Source: an uncultured Acidimicrobiales bacterium (GTDB lineage Bacteria; Actinomycetota; Acidimicrobiia; Acidimicrobiales; UBA10347). From it: DNA of 64,000 nucleotides. The notes beneath the pieces were generated by a model, which saw nothing but the letters and a program-made list of their open reading frames with translations, was not told the DNA's origin and did no database searches. Shown in pieces: positions 2,915-22,106 of the stretch (the stretch's first letter is position 1; each line of letters begins with the position of its first letter). The DNA is taken from NCBI GenBank assembly GCA_943788915.1, contig CALSSD010000002.1, positions 60,265 through 124,264 on the forward strand, in the 5' to 3' direction. The position numbers and the translations under genes were made by a program.

Positions 2915-4224
2915 ATGCTCTGTAGCTACTACGACGTCGCACTTGAGTCTGGCGACGACGCATTCAGCATCGATGCGTCGAACATCACGTTTGGCCCTGG
3001 GTGCTTGCGAGAAGCTGGCGACATTGCCAAGAACCTTGGCATCAAACGGATCGCTGTCTTTACCGATGATGCGCTCGTTGGCACCGAACATGTCGCCACT
3101 GTGTTGGCCTCGCTCAATGCTGCGGGATCGATGTCGCTCTCTATGACAATGTCCGGGTCGAACCGACCGACGAATCTTTCAAGGCTGGCGTCAAGTTCGC
3201 CAATGATGCCGATGTCGACGGGTTCATCTCGGTGGGTGGTGGTTCGGTCATCGACACCGCCAAGGCCGCCAATCTGTACTCCACCTATCCCGCCGAGTTC
3301 CTGGACTACGTAAATGCACCCATCGGCGGCGGCATTGCTGTACCCGGAACGCTCAAACCGCACATTGCCTGCCCGACGACCAGCGGCACCGGAAGCGAGT
3401 GCACCGGTATTGCCGTGTTCGACCTTCTCGAGATGAAAGCCAAGACCGGCATTGCCTCAAAAATGCTGCGACCGACGCGGGCACTCATAGACCCGAACGT
3501 GACCTCGACCTTGCCAGCCAACGTTGTTGCCGCGAGCGCTTTCGATGTCCTGAGTCATGCACTTGAGTCCTACACCGCACGGCCATATACCCAGCGCCCA
3601 GCGCCCGCCACGCCGTTCATGCGCCCCTCAAGCCAGGGCGCTAACCCGTGGAGTGATCTTGGTTGTGGCGAAGCACTTCGCCTGATCGGCTTGTTCCTTG
3701 AGCGGGGCGTGCACGATGCCACCGACACCGAAGCTCGCCACCAACTCATGTGGGCATCGACCCTGGCTGGCATCGCGTTCGGCAATGCTGGGTGCCATGC
3801 CCCCCACGGCATGTCGTACTCAGTGGCGGGTCTCGTCAAGGACTTCTGTCCGCACGGTTATCCGCAAGGCGAACCCATGGTCCCCCACGGCATGTCGGTC
3901 ATGGTCAACTCGCCGTCGGTGTTCCGCCATACGTCGGCAGGAAACCCTGAGCGACATCTCGACGGCGCCCGCTGGCTTGGCGTCGACACCACCGACCTCG
4001 GTCCGGCCGAAGCAGGTCCTGCGCTTGGCGATCGACTCGTTGAGCTGATGAAGGCAACGAACATGCCAAACGGCCTGATCGGTGTTGGTTACGAAGCCGC
4101 CGACGTACCCGCTCTCGTCGAAGGATCGCTTCCCCAGCGCCGCCTGCTCGACAACGCCCCAATCGAAATCGACCGCGAAGTGCTGACCACCGCTCTGTAC
4201 GAAGGCGCCCTCAGCTACTGGTAG
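2915..4224 (+). pseudogene. Iron-containing alcohol dehydrogenase, hydroxyacid-oxoacid transhydrogenase (ADHFE1)-like; frame broken at GGG run 3124-3126 (probable sequencing error)
   Basis: ATG 2915 gives MLCSYYDVALESG...VLASLNAAG. The next frame continues [18 protein letters not shown]...[16 protein letters not shown]...[11 protein letters not shown] to the stop at 4224. The joined product is collinear with Fe-ADH/HOT proteins. Confidence 0.8.
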
Positions 4225-12469: not shown

Positions 12470-14942
12470 ATGCGTGAACTCCCCATGAACGCCAAGATCG
12501 TCATCGTTGGCGGCGGCATCGTAGGTGCAAGCGTCGCCTACCACCTGGCAGCGAAGGGTGTTGCCGACGTCGTCCTACTCGAACAAAACACCATGACCAG
12601 CGGCACCACATGGCATGCCGCTGGCTTGGTCGGGCAGCTCCGAGCGACCCAGAACATGACTCGGCTTGCTTCTTACGGTGCCGAGCTCTACGAACAACTC
12701 GAACTCGACGGGTTCCCTACCGGCTTCAAGCGCACCGGTTCGATCGCTGTTGCCAACAACGAGGAACGGCTCGAAGAACTCGTGCGGGGCGCCGACATGG
12801 CCAGCTGCTTCGACATCGATATCCAACACGTCGACGTCGACACATTGGCGAGTCATTGGCCGCTCATGCACACCGACGACTTGATCGGCGGCGTGTGGGT
12901 CCCCCGCGATGGCCAAACCAGCCCGGTCGACACCACCATGGCACTGGCAAACGCCGCCAAACAGATGGGCGCCCGGATCTTCGAGAACACCGGCGTTGCC
13001 GAAATTATGACCACTGGTGGCAGTGGTTCTGCTGGCAGGGGTTCTGGTCGCAGGGCCACTGGGGTCCGCACCACCGACGGTCACGAGATCACTGCCGATG
13101 CTGTTGTCACCTGTGCCGGACTCTGGTCTCGTCATCTCGCAGCCAAGGCTGGTGCGAGTATTCCGCTGCACGGCTGCGAGCACTTCTACCTCGTGACCGA
13201 ACACATCGAGGGCCTCGGACAGGGATTGCCGACGCTTCGAGATCCTGGCAGTAACACCTACATCAAGGAAGAGACCGGACGGATCCTGGTCGGCTTCTTT
13301 GAGCCCGTAGCCAAACCAATTGATGCCCACGAGCTTCCCGACAAACCGTTCATCCAGCTCGAGGACGACTGGGACCATCTTGCGCCGCAGATCGAAGCGG
13401 CGATTCATCGCATGCCGATCATTGGCGAGACCGGCATTCGGCTGTTCTTCAACGGCCCCGAGAGTTTCACGCCCGACGATGCATACATCCTGGGTGAGAC
13501 GCCTGAACTTCGTGACCATTTCACTGCGAGTGGCTTCAACTCGGTAGGCATCCAGTCAGCCGCTGGTGCCGGCCGGGTGCTTGCAGATTGGATCGTCGAC
13601 GGACACCCCCCGATGGATCTGGGCGATGTCGACGTGCGTCGTTTCCACCCGTTCCAGGGCAATCGTAAGTACGTCCGCGACCGGGCAACCGAGACACTCG
13701 GCCTCCTCTACGAGATGCACTGGCCATATCGCCAGAAGGAAACCAGTCGTGGTGCCCGCCGTTCGCCGCTGCACGACAAGCTGCTTGCTGCTGGCGCCTG
13801 CATGGGTGAGGCCACCGGTTGGGAACGCCCAAACTGGTACGCACCGACGCCAGAAGAGGCGAAGTACGAGTACTCGTACAAACGCCAGAATTGGTTTGAT
13901 CACTCCGCCGCCGAGCACACCGCTGCTCGCGACAACGTCGCGCTGTTTGACCAGACATCGTTCTCGAAGTTCGAGGTTCAGGGTCCTCGCGCGGTCGCAG
14001 CAATGAATCGCATCTGCGCGAACGATGTCGACGTCGCCCTTGGCGCGTCGGTCTACGGCGCATGGCTAAACGAACGAGGCGGCATCGAGGCTGACCTGAC
14101 CGTGACTCGCACCGGCGAAAACTAAGTTCTTCGTAGTGACCGCCGCGGCCACCCAAACTCGCGACTTCGATTGGCTTACCAAGAATTTGCCAGCCAACGG
14201 TTCCGTTATGGCTACTGACGTGACCTCTGCATACACCGCGTTGGCGGTCATGGGTCCGAACTCGCGCACCTTCCTCCAGTCTGTGACCGACTCCGACTTG
14301 AGTAACGAAGCGTTCCCGTTCGGCACGTCGCAGCAGATCGAGATTGGCTACGCAACGGCAACCGCACTGCGTATGACGTACGTCGGCGAGCTCGGCTGGG
14401 AACTCTATGTACCGAGCGAATTCGCCGCCCACGTGTTCGAGACACTCACCACAGCCGGGGTCGTCCACGATCTGAAGTTGGCTGGTTATCACGCCCTCGA
14501 TTCGCTACGACTCGAAAAGGGTTACCGCCACTGGGGCCACGACATCACCGACGAAGACACGCCGCTCCAGGCAGGCCTGTCGTTTGCAGTCGCATGGGAC
14601 AAGCCGGGTGGTTTCATCGGACGCGACGCGCTGCTCGCCCAGAAGGAAGCCGGTCTCGACCGCCGTCTCGTGCAGTTCAAACTCGATGACCCGGAACCGC
14701 TGCTCTACCACGACAATCCCATCTTTCGAAATGGCGAACTCGTGGGCAACACAACGTCTGGTAACTACGGGCACACCGTCGGCTCGGCACTCGGCATGGG
14801 GTACGTGAAGTCGCCCGTCGATATGCCTCGGGCCGACGTCATCGACGCAACCTTCGAGCTACAAGTCAACGGCGAGCGTTACCCCGCCACCGCCAGCTAC
14901 CGCCCGTTCTACGATCCAACGTCACAACGCACCCGCCTCTGA
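12470..14942 (+). pseudogene. FAD-dependent oxidoreductase fused to a GcvT aminomethyltransferase domain (dimethylglycine/sarcosine dehydrogenase-like); frame broken at AAAA run 14118-14121 (probable sequencing error)
   Basis: 'IVIVGGGIVGASVAYHLA' dinucleotide fold. The first ORF stops at 14125 after 'ADLTVTRTGEN'. The next frame continues 'KFFVVTAAATQTRDFDWL...YVGELGWELYVP...' to 14942. Confidence 0.85.
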
Positions 14943-18004: not shown

Positions 18005-19003
18005 TTATTCGGCTTCGGTCACGAAGTCGATGAGCTGTTCCACCGAGTTCACCAGTGGCGTTTCCACGTCTTTCCAGCTTGAAACCTTGCCCAGAATATG
18101 CTTCCAGAACTGGGGCGGGGCCGCGCCGATACCCAACCGCTTGAGCACGCCTTCTTTCCACTGCTCACCCATGGGAACCCTGGGCCAGGCGTCGATGCCG
18201 ATAGCGGCTGGCTTGATCGCCTCCCAGATATCGACATAGGGGTGCCCCAAGATCAGAACGTTTGGGTCGTCGACCTGAGCTGCAATACGGGTCTCTTTGG
18301 AGCCGTCGACGAGGTGGTCGAGCAACACGCCCAAACGCTGCGAATCGTTTGGCCCAAACTCGCGAACCATGGCAGCTAAATCGTCGGCGCCTTCGAGTTG
18401 CTCGACCACGATGCCCTCGTAGCGAAGGTCGTCGCCCCACACCCGTTCGATGAGTTCGGCATCGTGGATGCCTTCGACCCAAATACGACTAGGCCGAGCA
18501 ACTCGGGCGCTCGTGTCTTCTGCGGCAATCGAACCCGACGCAGTGACTGAGCTCGCAGCCTTCTTCGGAAGCAGCGGCGATCGCAGTGCAACGAGGTCGC
18601 CCTCGTGACGGAAGAACCCCGGCACAGGATCGAAACGGTGTTCAATGCCAAGTTGATCCTTGATCACGACGATCACGCCTTCAATGAACGACACCACCGG
18701 GCCACTGGTCTTCGAAGGAGTATGTTCGAGTCGCATTCCCGGTTCGACGAACAGCTCGCGTTTGGCCAGACCCTTACGGCGCGCATCATGCATGTCGTCG
18801 AGGGATTCAAGGATGCCACCACCGCCGCTTTGTGACATGACATCGTCTCGAGAACGAATCTTGTCTGGCGTCTCAACGAAGTCGTCGAGCGACTCTAAGA
18901 TTCCACCGCTAGCGCTGCCACGCGAACCTTCGCTCCGGGGTGGAGCCGTCTCGCGTGCCTCGCTCATGGCATCGAGCGGTTCAAGAATTCCGTCGTCAGG
19001 CAC
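18005..19003 (-). CDS. DUF3097 family protein with an N-terminal triple repeat
   Basis: C-terminal two-thirds ('IWVEGIHDAELIERVWGDDLRYEGIVVEQLEGADDL...GHPYVDIWEAIKP') matches the conserved actinobacterial DUF3097. Confidence 0.75.
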   Translation of the reverse strand: MPDDGILEPLDAMSEARETAPPRSEGSRGSASGGILESLDDFVETPDKIRSRDDVMSQSGGGGILESLDDMHDARRKGLAKRELFVEPGMRLEHTPSKTSGPVVSFIEGVIVVIKDQLGIEHRFDPVPGFFRHEGDLVALRSPLLPKKAASSVTASGSIAAEDTSARVARPSRIWVEGIHDAELIERVWGDDLRYEGIVVEQLEGADDLAAMVREFGPNDSQRLGVLLDHLVDGSKETRIAAQVDDPNVLILGHPYVDIWEAIKPAAIGIDAWPRVPMGEQWKEGVLKRLGIGAAPPQFWKHILGKVSSWKDVETPLVNSVEQLIDFVTEAE

Positions 19004-19066: not shown

Positions 19067-20125
19067 TCAGGTGAGCGGGAAATATCCAGGCACCCGGTGC
19101 GGGTGGGTATCCAGATGCACCTTGGCCTCAGGTGCCCCCGAGAAACGCCCATGGGTCCAACGAATCTCAACATGCCCTTCGATCACGCACAGTTCATCGC
19201 CGACGGCCGCGTCGTTGTCGACATCGCGGGCGAGATCACGATCGAGTACCGCGGCCCGCCATCGGACCATCGGTTGGCCAGCAGACTCTGGCCAGGCATC
19301 AAACGACTTCAACTCGAAGCGGTTTCGGAAGTCCCACGGGGTGCCCACTCGGTAACGCAGAGGTTCGCCCGAGGTGGTTGCGCCCAACACGAAGTACGGC
19401 GCTGCTTGCAGCCGAAGTAACCGCCACAACATGGCTTCGCGTTCGCGTGCGGTACGCAAGGACGACCGCCATCGGTCTGCAGACGCAGTTGCGACGGCCA
19501 TCGAGAATTCTTCATAGAGTTGCTGAGATTTGTCCGGCAACCGGCCTCGTTTGGGCAGCGCAGCCTTGAGGCGTTTGCGGTCGCTGGTTTCGAGATCGGC
19601 GGCCAGCGCAGGTAGGGCCCGATAGTCGCGATCGAGTCCGGTGTCGACCAGGCATGCGGTGTACAACTCTTGGTACGCGTGGGGTGCGGTTGAAACGAAC
19701 CAATCGCTTCCTCGTTCCACACGTTTCTCTGCCAGTGCTCGGTCAAACAAATGGGATGGGCTTACGTTGTGCAGAATCGAACTGCCGTACTTGCACGAAA
19801 CTAGATACACATGATCGATGCGCAGGTCAGCCGGCACCTGCTCGTACCCCGGTGGTTTGTGCGGACCCTTCCACTCGACGCTCCACGGAGGTCGCCCCCG
19901 CAGGCCATCGTCGGCCCGAGCAAAGATGTGCCCGTTCTCCCATGCCGTTTCGAACTCGCGATCATGGGAACCCGCGGCACGTGCGTCGGTCAACCGTTCG
20001 TAGTGTTCGGTCTCTAGGTTGACCACGCTCATCGGCCGCACTCGCAGCGCTTCGTCGAGGTCGCGGAAGCCCAACATGGCTAAGCCAGTGACGATCTCGG
20101 TGATCTCGGTGCGTAGCGCGACCAT
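19067..20125 (-). CDS. Hypothetical protein; candidate nuclease partner of the upstream methyltransferase
   Basis: 352-aa ORF starting 2 nt after the preceding ORF in the same operon. I recognise no family. It contains a short PD-(D/E)XK-like string 'PADLRIDHVYLVSCK'. Confidence 0.55.
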   Translation of the reverse strand: MVALRTEITEIVTGLAMLGFRDLDEALRVRPMSVVNLETEHYERLTDARAAGSHDREFETAWENGHIFARADDGLRGRPPWSVEWKGPHKPPGYEQVPADLRIDHVYLVSCKYGSSILHNVSPSHLFDRALAEKRVERGSDWFVSTAPHAYQELYTACLVDTGLDRDYRALPALAADLETSDRKRLKAALPKRGRLPDKSQQLYEEFSMAVATASADRWRSSLRTAREREAMLWRLLRLQAAPYFVLGATTSGEPLRYRVGTPWDFRNRFELKSFDAWPESAGQPMVRWRAAVLDRDLARDVDNDAAVGDELCVIEGHVEIRWTHGRFSGAPEAKVHLDTHPHRVPGYFPLT

Positions 20126-20127
20126 CG

Positions 20128-20445
20128 TCAGCCGTCGCGGAAGAGTGCGGCGAACTGCAATTGTGCACCGATCAGATCTGCTGGCAGATCTTCGTTGGTA
20201 TACACGCTGCTATTCGAGTAGACGTCGATCCCAGTGCCAGTCTCACGGATCCAACTCACCACCGCGTCGCCCCATCGTTCCGCCAAGAGAGCATCGCGAA
20301 TCTCGGCTGCCCGTCCGTTCAGCAATCCAGCGTCGGTTCGGGCAACGACCTCGAGAGCCAATACTCGGTGCAAAGTGTCTAGGTCATCGGCGAGATAGAC
20401 AAGCGGTGGTTCGGCATGCACCACTGCGGTTGCGACGGCAGGCAT
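20128..20445 (-). CDS. Hypothetical small acidic protein (105 aa)
   Basis: Its ATG shares one base with the methyltransferase stop (TGATG, 20445). No HTH or other recognisable motif. Confidence 0.45.
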   Translation of the reverse strand: MPAVATAVVHAEPPLVYLADDLDTLHRVLALEVVARTDAGLLNGRAAEIRDALLAERWGDAVVSWIRETGTGIDVYSNSSVYTNEDLPADLIGAQLQFAALFRDG

Positions 20446-21992
20446 CAGACTTGGCGCTCAGTAAATTCTTCGAACTCGGCAATATCGGCGTCGGTCCAGA
20501 AGCCAGCAATCGGAACTTGGACGCCAGCGGCATAGGCGGCGAGTCGTTGCGACACCGCAGCATCGTCGAACATCTCGATCGCATCAAACACGCTGTGGGG
20601 GCCGATCGCCCGCAGCGCCTTGTCGCCCTCGCTGCCGTTCGACGGAAGACTCGACGTGAGAACCAACACCCGACTTCGGTTCTGTGAGTCTTCGCGGGCC
20701 TTGAGCACATGCACTCGGCCAAGAAGTTTCCACATAGTGTCGGTGCGCCGAAGCCCTGGACGCACGGTCGTAAACGCGCCAGAAACGTCGACGTAGTATT
20801 GGCGGCCTTCCTTGTCAGCCACCAGGAAGCTGAACTGCAAACCCAGCTTGGGGATCTTGGCCTTCTCTTTGACAATCTCGAATCCGGCACTGCGTAATAC
20901 TTGCTCGGCGAGATCGGCCGCCTTTTTACCCACGCTTGTGGCACGAGCCTGGAAGTGTTCGAGGCGATCCTGACCGTCGTCGGGCAACTCGATAGCGAGT
21001 TGACCCTTCTGGGCAGCGTCGTAGGACGGCACCTTGGGACGTTGCTTCTCGGCTTCAAGCCGGGCAATCGCTATGTCGGCATATTCGCGATCGAGTTCGA
21101 AACCCATACCCCGGCGACCAGTACGTTCCGCAGCGAGCAATGTGGTGCCGCTGCCAAGGAACGGATCGATCACGATGTCATCGCGGTAGGTGTAAAGGTC
21201 GATTAACCGACGCGGCAATTCAATTGGGAACGGCGCAGGATGCTGGACTCGGCGAGCCGACTCGGGTGCGATCTTCCACACATCAAGCGTGGCTTCCATG
21301 AAGTCATCGGCACTGAGGGTGCTCTCGTGGGGCAGTCCCTTTTCAGCGCGACCTTTGGGCATCGCCCGATCGAAACGACCCTTGCTGACAACAATGACCC
21401 GTTCGGTGAGATCGCGAAGCACCGGGTTTGTGGCCTTGCGATACGAACCCCAGGCGACCGACCCGGTGGCACCCTCGGCCTTCTGCCAAATAATCTCGCC
21501 CCGCAACAGCATGCCGAGGTCGTCCTGCAGAATGCGGATGATGTCGGCCGACAGGCTTCGATATGGCTTGCGTCCCAGGTTGGCCACATTGATCGCCATA
21601 CGACCCCCCGGCTCCAGAACCCGGAGGCAGCTGGCAAACACATCGTGCAGCATCTGGAGATACTCCAGATACGTGGTTGGTATGGCATTTCCGTCGCGAC
21701 GGGTATTGGGATCACCGGCAACCGCTAATTCGTACTCTTTGCCGACGAAGTACGGCGGTGATGTGACCACCAGCGCAACGCTGTTTTCAGGCAATACCTC
21801 GTGGATCTTACGGCTATCCATGACCCGTACCGGCTCGGCTAGAACCGAATCAGGAACGGGCGTGACCTCGTTGTCGTCGCTAATCGTTGGCGGCGAGAAC
21901 CGGGCATAAAACGCTGAGCTGTCATGGCTCTCGCGCGCTCCAGCACCGAACGAAGCGGTTGCCGTACCCCGGCGCGGTTTGTCTTGACTCAT
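20445..21992 (-). CDS. Site-specific DNA methyltransferase, beta-class N4/N6 family, with an extra C-terminal domain of about 185 aa
   Basis: Motif IV 'VVTSPPYFVGKEY' lies near the N-terminus. Motif I 'VIDPFLGSGTTLLAAERTGRRGMGFELD' lies near residue 300 (the beta-class order). About 185 further residues follow. Confidence 0.9.
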   Translation of the reverse strand: MSQDKPRRGTATASFGAGARESHDSSAFYARFSPPTISDDNEVTPVPDSVLAEPVRVMDSRKIHEVLPENSVALVVTSPPYFVGKEYELAVAGDPNTRRDGNAIPTTYLEYLQMLHDVFASCLRVLEPGGRMAINVANLGRKPYRSLSADIIRILQDDLGMLLRGEIIWQKAEGATGSVAWGSYRKATNPVLRDLTERVIVVSKGRFDRAMPKGRAEKGLPHESTLSADDFMEATLDVWKIAPESARRVQHPAPFPIELPRRLIDLYTYRDDIVIDPFLGSGTTLLAAERTGRRGMGFELDREYADIAIARLEAEKQRPKVPSYDAAQKGQLAIELPDDGQDRLEHFQARATSVGKKAADLAEQVLRSAGFEIVKEKAKIPKLGLQFSFLVADKEGRQYYVDVSGAFTTVRPGLRRTDTMWKLLGRVHVLKAREDSQNRSRVLVLTSSLPSNGSEGDKALRAIGPHSVFDAIEMFDDAAVSQRLAAYAAGVQVPIAGFWTDADIAEFEEFTERQV

Positions 21993-22106
21993 GACCGTGG
22001 TGGCCTCCTGCTATGACTCTAAGCGGACCATACGCCTGGGGTGCGACAATCTCGCCGGGGTTACGCCCTAGGCGTTAGCACGCAGCACGTTCACTAGAGT
22101 GAGCGC

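Follow-up and report, generated by a model that had tools for sequence, protein, structure and literature searches.

In a 64,000-nucleotide stretch of DNA from an uncultured Acidimicrobiales bacterium (assembly GCA_943788915.1, contig CALSSD010000002.1; the whole stretch is called the window below), we analysed three adjacent minus-strand genes, a DNA methyltransferase gene and two genes of no described family, which were designated MT (gene 1), g2 (gene 2) and g3 (gene 3). The results confirmed that MT, g2 and g3 form a genuine, co-conserved and tightly coupled operon, which is not an ordinary mobile Type II restriction-modification (R-M) system. New in it are the fusion of the methyltransferase to a domain with a predicted restriction-endonuclease fold, two partner families without described relatives, and a class-wide, vertical behaviour combined with cassette swapping; the methyltransferase as such is ordinary in its class. 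Our preferred reading, held tentatively and at rather less than an even chance, is that the operon is a lineage-fixed methylation module of the class Acidimicrobiia that derives from an R-M system and possibly writes N4-methylcytosine (m4C) in CGCG, with g3 as an effector coupled to methylation. In the literature searched, the trio was nowhere described. The window stems from metagenome-assembled genomes of abundant marine Acidimicrobiaceae, in whose annotation the three genes appear as one methyltransferase and two hypothetical proteins.

An earlier note on this DNA, made from the sequence alone, had described a translationally coupled three-gene operon, and the open reading frames (ORFs) and junctions are as it claimed. 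MT occupies positions 20445-21992 (minus strand, 515 amino acids (aa)), g2 positions 20128-20445 (minus, 105 aa), its start overlapping the MT stop, and g3 positions 19067-20125 (minus, 352 aa). On the minus strand the first junction reads gtcTGATGcct, in which the MT stop TGA (20447-20445) and the g2 ATG (20445-20443) share one base, the A at 20445. At the second junction a spacer of 2 nucleotides (nt), CG, separates the g2 stop TGA (20130-20128) from the g3 ATG (20125), and the junction reads ggcTGAcgATGgtc on the minus strand. The coupling is kept in about 160 related loci, and the window holds a single methyltransferase candidate.

The N-terminal part of MT (aa 1-320; 21033-21992, minus) was recognised through Pfam, PADLOC and solved relatives as a beta-class amino-DNA-methyltransferase domain. 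Pfam N6_N4_Mtase (PF01555) covers aa 72-308 with an E-value of 3e-37 and 129.1 bits (cut-off 26.7), and the PADLOC model MTase_II (PDLC03350) was matched with an E-value of 8e-81. Motif IV, SPPY (aa 79-82), lies N-terminal to motif I, DPFLGSGTT (aa 279-287), an order that places the enzyme in the beta class, and both SPPYF and DPFLGSGTT are kept in all MT variants. Among solved structures the closest is that of TTHA0409 (2zie), likewise an SPPY enzyme, followed by those of the N4-cytosine enzymes N4CMT (8s9m) and M.PvuII. A serine in motif IV is the usual mark of N4-cytosine enzymes. Judged by its sequence, MT is a beta-class SPPY amino-methyltransferase that more likely modifies cytosine at N4 than adenine at N6; with 52.3 bits against the CcrM model NCBIfam NF050803 (cut-off 830), it is not a CcrM orthologue. 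About 200 residues follow the Pfam domain, and the earlier description of gene 1 as a beta-class methyltransferase with SPPY, FLGSGTT and a long C-terminal extension holds.

This C-terminal part (aa 321-515; 20448-21032, minus) comprises a linker and a domain, referred to as the C-domain, for which no sequence match was found in Pfam (E up to 10), the PDB or PADLOC, whether in variant A or in variant B of MT (see below). An AlphaFold2 (AF2) model built on an alignment of 28 homologues had a predicted local distance difference test score (pLDDT) of 82.5 and the topology alpha-beta-beta-beta-alpha-beta-alpha-beta. When the model was compared with the PDB by Foldseek, the best match was NucS (2vld, E 0.019, probability 0.99), other top matches being EndoMS (5gke), SfsA, BsoBI, the R2 endonuclease domain, BspD6I, VRR-NUC, PspGI, Exo5, LmuA, McrC, AdnAB and Bse634I. 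The best matches are all proteins of the restriction-endonuclease (PD-(D/E)xK) fold, and since they agree despite weak E-values, we accepted a PD-(D/E)xK restriction-endonuclease-like fold for the C-domain, at the level of the predicted fold only. By the model, the C-domain is the sole recognisable restriction-enzyme-like element of the operon and g3 is not one; the earlier note had placed its restriction-enzyme hint in g3, and on this point it has to be revised.

The predicted catalytic triad of the C-domain is incomplete. At the aspartate position of beta-2 we found Ser in the window, Asn in variant A and Asp in variant B, and beta-3 carries D-V-S in the window, DxS in variant A, DxT in variant B and DxA in a variant without g2; the lysine position of (D/E)xK is thus S, T or A in all variants and never Lys, the strands having been placed by reading the model and not by superposition. 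A loop after beta-3, SGAFTTxRPGLxRTDTxWK, is invariant. The domain may thus have degenerated into a DNA-binding form of the fold, or it may have a non-canonical active site.

In another reading, MT could be a single-chain R-M enzyme of the Type IIC/IIG or methylase-Shedu kind, in which the C-domain restricts, g2 is an inhibitor or controller, and g3 is accessory or unrelated. The PD-(D/E)xK fold itself agrees with this proposal, as do the Asp at beta-2 together with the Asp in beta-3 of variant B, and the residues D87, D103 and K107, all invariant in the variant-A set, with D87 and K107 persisting in variant B and in the variant without g2. The canonical triad is nevertheless not conserved (S...D-V-S in the window, S/T/A at the lysine position throughout), no Shedu (DUF4263) or other nuclease hidden Markov model (HMM) was matched, and the Foldseek E-values are 0.02 or weaker. 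Published precedent is available in the N6_N4_MTase-nuclease (Shedu) fusions proposed as R-M equivalents (PMC10441436); co-evolution with MT and an acidic character, frequent in inhibitors and DNA mimics, would suit g2 to such a role, and MT with its C-domain also occurs without g3. The strong linkage and conservation of g3 would be left unexplained, and we regard a single-chain enzyme as improbable.

The protein encoded by g2 has 105 aa and an isoelectric point (pI) of 4.3, and belongs to a conserved family with two deep variants, which end in ...GAQLQFxxLFRD or ...ASMAIRTSRLF. No confident family match, a helix-turn-helix (HTH) included, was obtained in Pfam, NCBIfam, PADLOC (E up to 1), PHROGs or the PDB. 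The earlier note had called gene 2 strongly acidic, without an HTH and not a classical controller (C) protein, and the pI and the lack of a family match agree with it; a role as R-M controller protein was rejected, given that neither an HTH nor another Pfam or NCBIfam family was found at this pI. As a separate observation, 6 of 21 g2 homologues gave a sub-threshold match to Pfam PF25687 (Mycobacteriophage_Gene3; best E 0.0034), and the g2 of the window gave none.

The g3 family is large and strongly conserved. More than 2000 homologues were found at E <= 1e-3, all annotated as hypothetical, their named sources being Acidimicrobiia or Actinomycetota metagenome-assembled genomes (MAGs). An exhaustive profile search gave 613 clusters at 50% identity, and among the best 150 listed there was no pointer to another family. 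In a scan of one genome per species, relatives of g3 were present in at least 594 species genomes, and the best 80 of these are nearly all labelled Acidimicrobiia or Acidimicrobiales. The numbers of matching families in Pfam, NCBIfam, PADLOC (E up to 1) and PHROGs were zero, in keeping with the earlier statement that gene 3 lies outside recognisable restriction-enzyme families, and comparisons by sequence and HMM, for g3 also by fold, gave neither g2 nor g3 confident homology to a known family, housekeeping ones included. Longer proteins of the g3 family were rejected as informative fusions: two that have the tail of an MT C-domain at their N-terminus were read as frameshifted gene calls. One further longer member carries an unrelated small-molecule methyltransferase domain.

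Across 23 g3 sequences the mean column identity was 62%, with about 100 invariant positions, among them the motifs GLRGRPPW.VEWKGPH.PPGYEQ.PADLR.DHVYL.SCKYGS, YRVGTPWDF and GHVE.RWSHG.F...PEAK. The g3 of the window contains PADLRIDHVYLVSCK, in which P98, D100, D104, S110, C111 and K112 are invariant in the 23 homologues, and the motif PAD100-LRID104HVYLVS110CK112 (PAD-x9-SCK) is also kept in a divergent member. This spacing would be compatible with short PD...(D/E/S)xK sites such as those of PvuII and MutH. A second ExK-like element, PE333AK335, is invariant as well. The AF2 model of g3 had a pLDDT of 80.5 and a predicted template modelling score (pTM) of 0.78. Among viral models (BFVD), Foldseek found two uncharacterised phage proteins, the sole structural neighbours of g3. 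A0A1J0F9H5 has 571 aa (E 5e-4); A0A8D9C8Y9, which belongs to an uncultured marine phage, has 517 aa (E 1.4e-3, template modelling (TM) score 0.43 over 473 columns).

Two censuses of related loci were carried out, one seeded with g3 (79 usable loci) and one seeded with the MT C-domain, for which 59 loci on metagenome contigs had 1.5 kb or more of downstream sequence. MT, g2 and g3 stood in the same order in 63 of the 79 g3-seeded loci, and MT was directly followed by g3, without g2, in nine more (9/79). From the MT side, the full trio was present in 51/59 loci and MT-g3 in 1/59. Over all 160 loci, MT and g2 overlapped in 97 of 127 cases (by 4 nt in 53 and by 1 nt in 34), and g2 and g3 overlapped in 52 of 128, with a gap of 1-20 nt in another 69/128. 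The recurrence of gene order and tight spacing across about 160 loci argues that the linkage is more than chance, and the check for co-occurrence of the three genes across genomes, proposed in the earlier note, thereby came out positive. The trio is therefore the dominant, tightly coupled form, yet each part can occur without the others.

The occurrence of g3 alone, MT alone and MT-g2 would also suit a solitary methyltransferase followed by two passengers, in which g2 and g3 are unrelated to methylation and lie downstream through inherited gene order, and it could be added that g3 does not co-evolve with MT and that neither g2 nor g3 showed a fold related to DNA. Against such an arrangement, the adjacency of the trio survives the loss of all other synteny, start/stop overlaps are kept in most of the about 160 loci, and g2 co-evolves tightly with MT, so that we consider passengers very unlikely.

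A few loci deviate from the common arrangement. A low-GC relative (L159:3981-5824; guanine plus cytosine (GC) fraction 0.515) has MT and g2 with a 1-nt overlap and no g3, a convergent membrane-protein gene following directly, and shows that the MT-g2 pair can stand alone. In a long-read MAG (L010:4112-5998), MT and g2 form a single ORF of 628 aa, the result of a genuine fusion or else of an indel error. A 223-aa remnant (L083:6001-6672) with only the end of the methylase domain and the C-domain adjoins an rve integrase gene and an HNH gene, has no g2 or g3, and looks like a decayed or disrupted MT copy. Several "short" C-domain proteins in the databases (194-237 aa; for example in L084) look like frameshifted gene calls.

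To describe how the three genes have evolved together, pairwise identities were compared in 60 loci with all three genes. The identities of the two MT parts and of g2 intercorrelated strongly (Spearman 0.83-0.85; g2 with MT 0.83-0.84), and their correlations with g3 were weak (0.27-0.35; g2-g3 0.35). MT and g2 fall into the variants A, to which the window belongs, and B, found for example in L001; by tblastn the methylase domains of the two are 55% identical and the C-domains 37%. Three g3 clusters each hold both MT-g2 variants. These comparisons show that g2 co-evolves with MT, and that g3 is conserved independently and follows the host lineage.

Two loci of the same clade, L001 and L003, with flanking genes common to them and the window, illustrate this. 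By identity to the window, L001 is the closer of the two in its flanks (MsrB 96% against 80% in L003, DUF3097 87% against 83%), yet its MT (methylase domain 55%, C-domain 37%, against 90% and 84%) and g2 (32% against 86%) are far more divergent, with g3 alike in both (80% and 78%). MT-g2 has therefore been replaced as a cassette, and the two genes are exchanged as a unit at a fixed locus with g3 and the neighbourhood unchanged. Replacements of this kind typically mark loci under diversifying selection. The usual beta-class target-recognition region is alike in both variants, and the largest divergence lies in the linker and the C-domain. Taken over the loci, the module shows vertical, chromosomal and class-wide inheritance in Acidimicrobiia together with cassette exchange.

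A candidate target for MT is offered by published methylomes. In every marine Acidimicrobiia MAG examined by Hiraoka et al. (2022, NAR, PMC8919816), m4C in CGCG and N6-methyladenine (m6A) in BAAAA were methylated, and neither mark was found in the class Actinobacteria. CGCG is the only m4C motif named for Acidimicrobiia in the text of that paper; in the two MAGs that it details, one methylated motif was left without a matched methyltransferase, and the best REBASE matches of its two verified BAAAA enzymes are m6A enzymes at about 25% identity (PMC8919816). Variants A and B do not fit the two BAAAA enzymes, the published pair being reported as 32% identical, against the 55% and 37% given above for the two domains of variants A and B. 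That MT, a class-wide N4-type enzyme, writes the m4C CGCG mark has in our estimate about an even chance.

CGCG is also the most depleted palindromic tetramer in the window (observed/expected ratio (O/E) 0.68, z -13). The O/E was 0.62-0.87 in all Acidimicrobiia loci fetched (L001-L164), whichever parts of the operon they hold, those with g3 alone or MT alone included, and reached 0.79 in Azospirillum and 1.09 in Burkholderia as controls. Since the depletion is equal in g3-alone loci and is seen in Azospirillum, it was rejected as evidence of restriction avoidance linked to this operon. The GANTC mark of Alphaproteobacteria and the GATC mark of Gammaproteobacteria control cell cycle, repair and replication. 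The motifs shared by the marine Acidimicrobiia examined recall these two, and in the operon there is now a concrete candidate, conserved widely, for the origin of one such mark.

In the preferred reading, that of a lineage-fixed methylation module derived from an R-M system, MT would mark the host chromosome at a short motif, m4C CGCG being the best candidate, and its C-domain would, with the acidic g2, provide DNA binding or control for the enzyme. The g3 protein would be a methylation-coupled effector on DNA without the mark, possibly through its invariant PAD-x9-SCK and PEAK acidic/basic motifs. The module would then behave like a resident R-M system, with an exchangeable modification subunit and adaptor and a constant effector. 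In its favour are the affinity of MT to Type II enzymes, the nuclease fold predicted for the C-domain, the operon logic, the cassette swaps and the invariant charged motifs of g3.

Several results weigh against this reading, beginning with g3 itself. It had no sequence or profile match in the PDB, Foldseek gave no match there with an E-value better than 0.24 and none to a solved nuclease, and hhalign gave no match to the MT C-domain; g3 was on these comparisons rejected as a recognisable nuclease. Its most conserved segment, residues 89-104, and residues 130-137 fall below pLDDT 50 in the model, and part of the PD..SxK element lies there. The PD-x(n)-SxK hint noticed earlier in g3 therefore stands as a motif that is present and invariant, and falls short in that it lies partly in a low-confidence segment of a protein with no detected nuclease fold; a nuclease function of g3 is thus conceivable, though not structurally supported by these data. 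The identity among g3 proteins (49-84%) is that of a core enzyme and far above that of usual restriction enzymes. Moreover, g3 was intact without MT within 6 kb in 7/79 g3-seeded loci, in which an unlinked MT elsewhere is possible; in several of them g3 follows an NAD synthetase gene, and in one it forms a monocistronic unit amid metabolic genes. Survival of g3 without its methyltransferase would run contrary to what is expected of a free-standing restriction enzyme. In the C-domain-seeded loci, MT-g2 occurred without g3 in 2/59 and MT alone in 5/59.

The same holds for specificity and setting. The assignment of CGCG to MT is by inference, the CGCG depletion is not tied to the operon and does not discriminate between readings, and the alike target-recognition regions mean that a cassette swap need not change specificity. 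No PADLOC model matched g2, g3 or the MT C-domain, and apart from the methyltransferase PHROGs gave no defence annotation either. The genes checked within about 10 kb on both sides of the operon are all metabolic or housekeeping, the GC content of the operon equals that of its flanks and is native, and the module sits in stable chromosomal contexts over deep divergence, its synteny with housekeeping genes being long-lived. No g3 homologue was found in a plasmid collection, a phage collection or IMG/VR. Housekeeping synteny, native GC and absence from mobile collections are not how mobile defence islands behave, and for the same reasons a defence-island setting for the operon was not borne out. 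What stood of the earlier idea of an atypical R-M or defence module is the co-conserved operon, the methyltransferase and the partners outside described families, neither g2 nor g3 matching a known defence system model in PADLOC; the lineage-fixed distribution, the housekeeping synteny and the lack of mobility run counter to it. The R-M or defence reading may still hold, with a housekeeping role in methylation as a serious competitor.

The main alternative, a housekeeping module for epigenetic marking comparable to CcrM or Dam and their readers, fits these evolutionary data better than the preferred reading does. In this alternative MT would be a lineage-wide orphan, its C-domain a DNA-binding aid as in CcrM and g2 a modulator, and g3 would be a non-restriction reader or a repair or replication factor that makes use of the methyl mark, as MutH, SeqA or Vsr do, or would serve DNA metabolism in some separate way. 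The presence of g3 in at least 594 species genomes and the class-wide methyl marks (PMC8919816) would be expected of such a module, although its presence is not demonstrably universal in the class. Synteny over deep divergence, which includes a convergent PolB-exo-like exonuclease in 34/80 loci, housekeeping neighbours, native GC and the lack of detected mobile-element carriage point the same way; the repeated replacement of MT-g2 by a variant of about 50% identity at the same locus is, in contrast, unusual for a housekeeping gene. Conservation of g3 like that of core enzymes and its persistence alone, an incomplete triad that suits binding over cutting, and a C-domain that remains on MT even without g3 are also in its favour. 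MT, however, groups with Type II R-M methyltransferases and, at 52 bits, scores far below the cut-off of the CcrM model (830), g3 showed neither a reader nor a repair fold, and cassette exchange and R-M ancestry fit worse. We judge this alternative somewhat unlikely as a whole, the roles offered for g3 included.

A more far-reaching version can be formulated, although we think it has only a small chance of being right. In it, g2 and g3 are two new families that would form, with a nuclease-fold N4-type MT, a vertically inherited write-and-read system for the class-wide mark, and g3 would be a new methylation-sensing DNA enzyme for genome maintenance, for example for strand or self discrimination in repair or replication (MutH/SeqA-like), not for phage defence, tuned by the exchangeable MT-g2 cassette. 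Should g3 be an effector that reads the mark, it would represent either a restriction-enzyme family not described before or a novel factor of methyl-directed genome maintenance, in a lineage of sea and soil that is abundant but has hardly been cultured. Should it not be one, the operon would keep its use as a marker and as a clear example of cassettes exchanged at one fixed place in the chromosome. As a testable lead, the operon bears on which proteins write the class-wide methyl marks of Acidimicrobiia and which read them, and it adds two strongly conserved uncharacterised partners and an unusual fusion of a methylase and a nuclease fold.

The surroundings of the operon were then described. 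In the window it is flanked by DUF3097 on one side and a DIOX_N/2OG-FeII oxygenase (2-oxoglutarate (2OG) oxygenase) on the other, and no integrase or transposase was seen among the genes checked within about 10 kb on either side, just as the earlier note had reported. The intergenic region upstream of MT (21993-22106, minus strand), common to MT and the divergent 2OG oxygenase gene, holds a Shine-Dalgarno sequence, AGGAGG, at 22009-22004, 11 nt 5' of the MT ATG. The promoter of the operon presumably lies here as well; a scan of the minus strand revealed no consensus sigma-70 site. DUF3097 (18005-19003, minus) lies directly downstream of g3 on the same strand after a 63-nt gap, in the window and in close relatives, and a DUF3097_C fragment (3619-3756) was seen near the operon in the unrelated, differently arranged locus L084.

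Elsewhere, a 4.45-Mb genome with the module has citrate synthase, HSP70, TetR, aminotransferase and HIT genes as its neighbours, and in 22 loci MT is preceded by a divergent gene of 290 aa without family assignment. The PolB-exo-like 3'-5' exonuclease gene mentioned above is convergent to g3 with abutting or overlapping 3' ends in 34 of 80 g3 loci from several g3 clusters (for example L012:6999-7790, minus; L029, L049, L066 and L074), and is not present in the window. Its match to Pfam DNA_pol_B_exo1 is 25.1 bits at a 23-bit cut-off, and its position could reflect inherited synteny or a functional tie to DNA metabolism. Further away in the window, a DAO/FAO_M/GCV_T gene (dimethylglycine or sarcosine dehydrogenase-like) is split into two parts in different frames (12470-14125 and 14136-14942, both plus), with the GCV_T domain broken at profile positions 102 and 108, which is a frameshift, an assembly error or a pseudogene.

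Compared with known systems, the operon resembles Type II R-M systems with beta-class N4-cytosine enzymes (PvuII and BamHI type) in the order of motifs IV and I, the SPPY/F motif and the strong MTase_II match, and in having MT upstream of and coupled to a partner of unrecognisable family, which is common for restriction enzymes. It differs from them in the extra nuclease-fold domain predicted on MT, in the acidic non-HTH gene between MT and g3, and in a partner, g3, that is without a nuclease fold, highly conserved, vertical across the class, alone in some genomes and free of a mobility signal. Because a recognisable nuclease partner was not established, the trio is kept apart from classical Type II systems. 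Type IIC/IIG enzymes and the N6_N4_MTase-Shedu fusions (PMC10441436) likewise combine an amino-methyltransferase and a PD-(D/E)xK-fold domain in one polypeptide; the domain of MT is C-terminal, lacks the full triad, matches no Shedu (DUF4263) or nuclease model, and is accompanied by two coupled genes.

In the dcm-vsr pair of enterobacteria, a chromosomal methyltransferase gene also overlaps a downstream gene, there encoding a nuclease-fold protein, and the pair is not a restriction system. Here, in contrast, no Vsr homology was detected, MT is an amino (N4/N6) and not a C5 enzyme, and the predicted nuclease fold is fused to it. With CcrM and Dam the operon shares a lineage-wide vertical distribution among housekeeping genes and a reported class-wide mark, and CcrM is also a beta-class enzyme with an added C-terminal domain. 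MT differs from both in that it is not a CcrM orthologue, has SPPY and not DPPY, carries a C-domain of predicted nuclease fold, is coupled to two further genes, and exists in two deep allelic variants that are exchanged between lineages.

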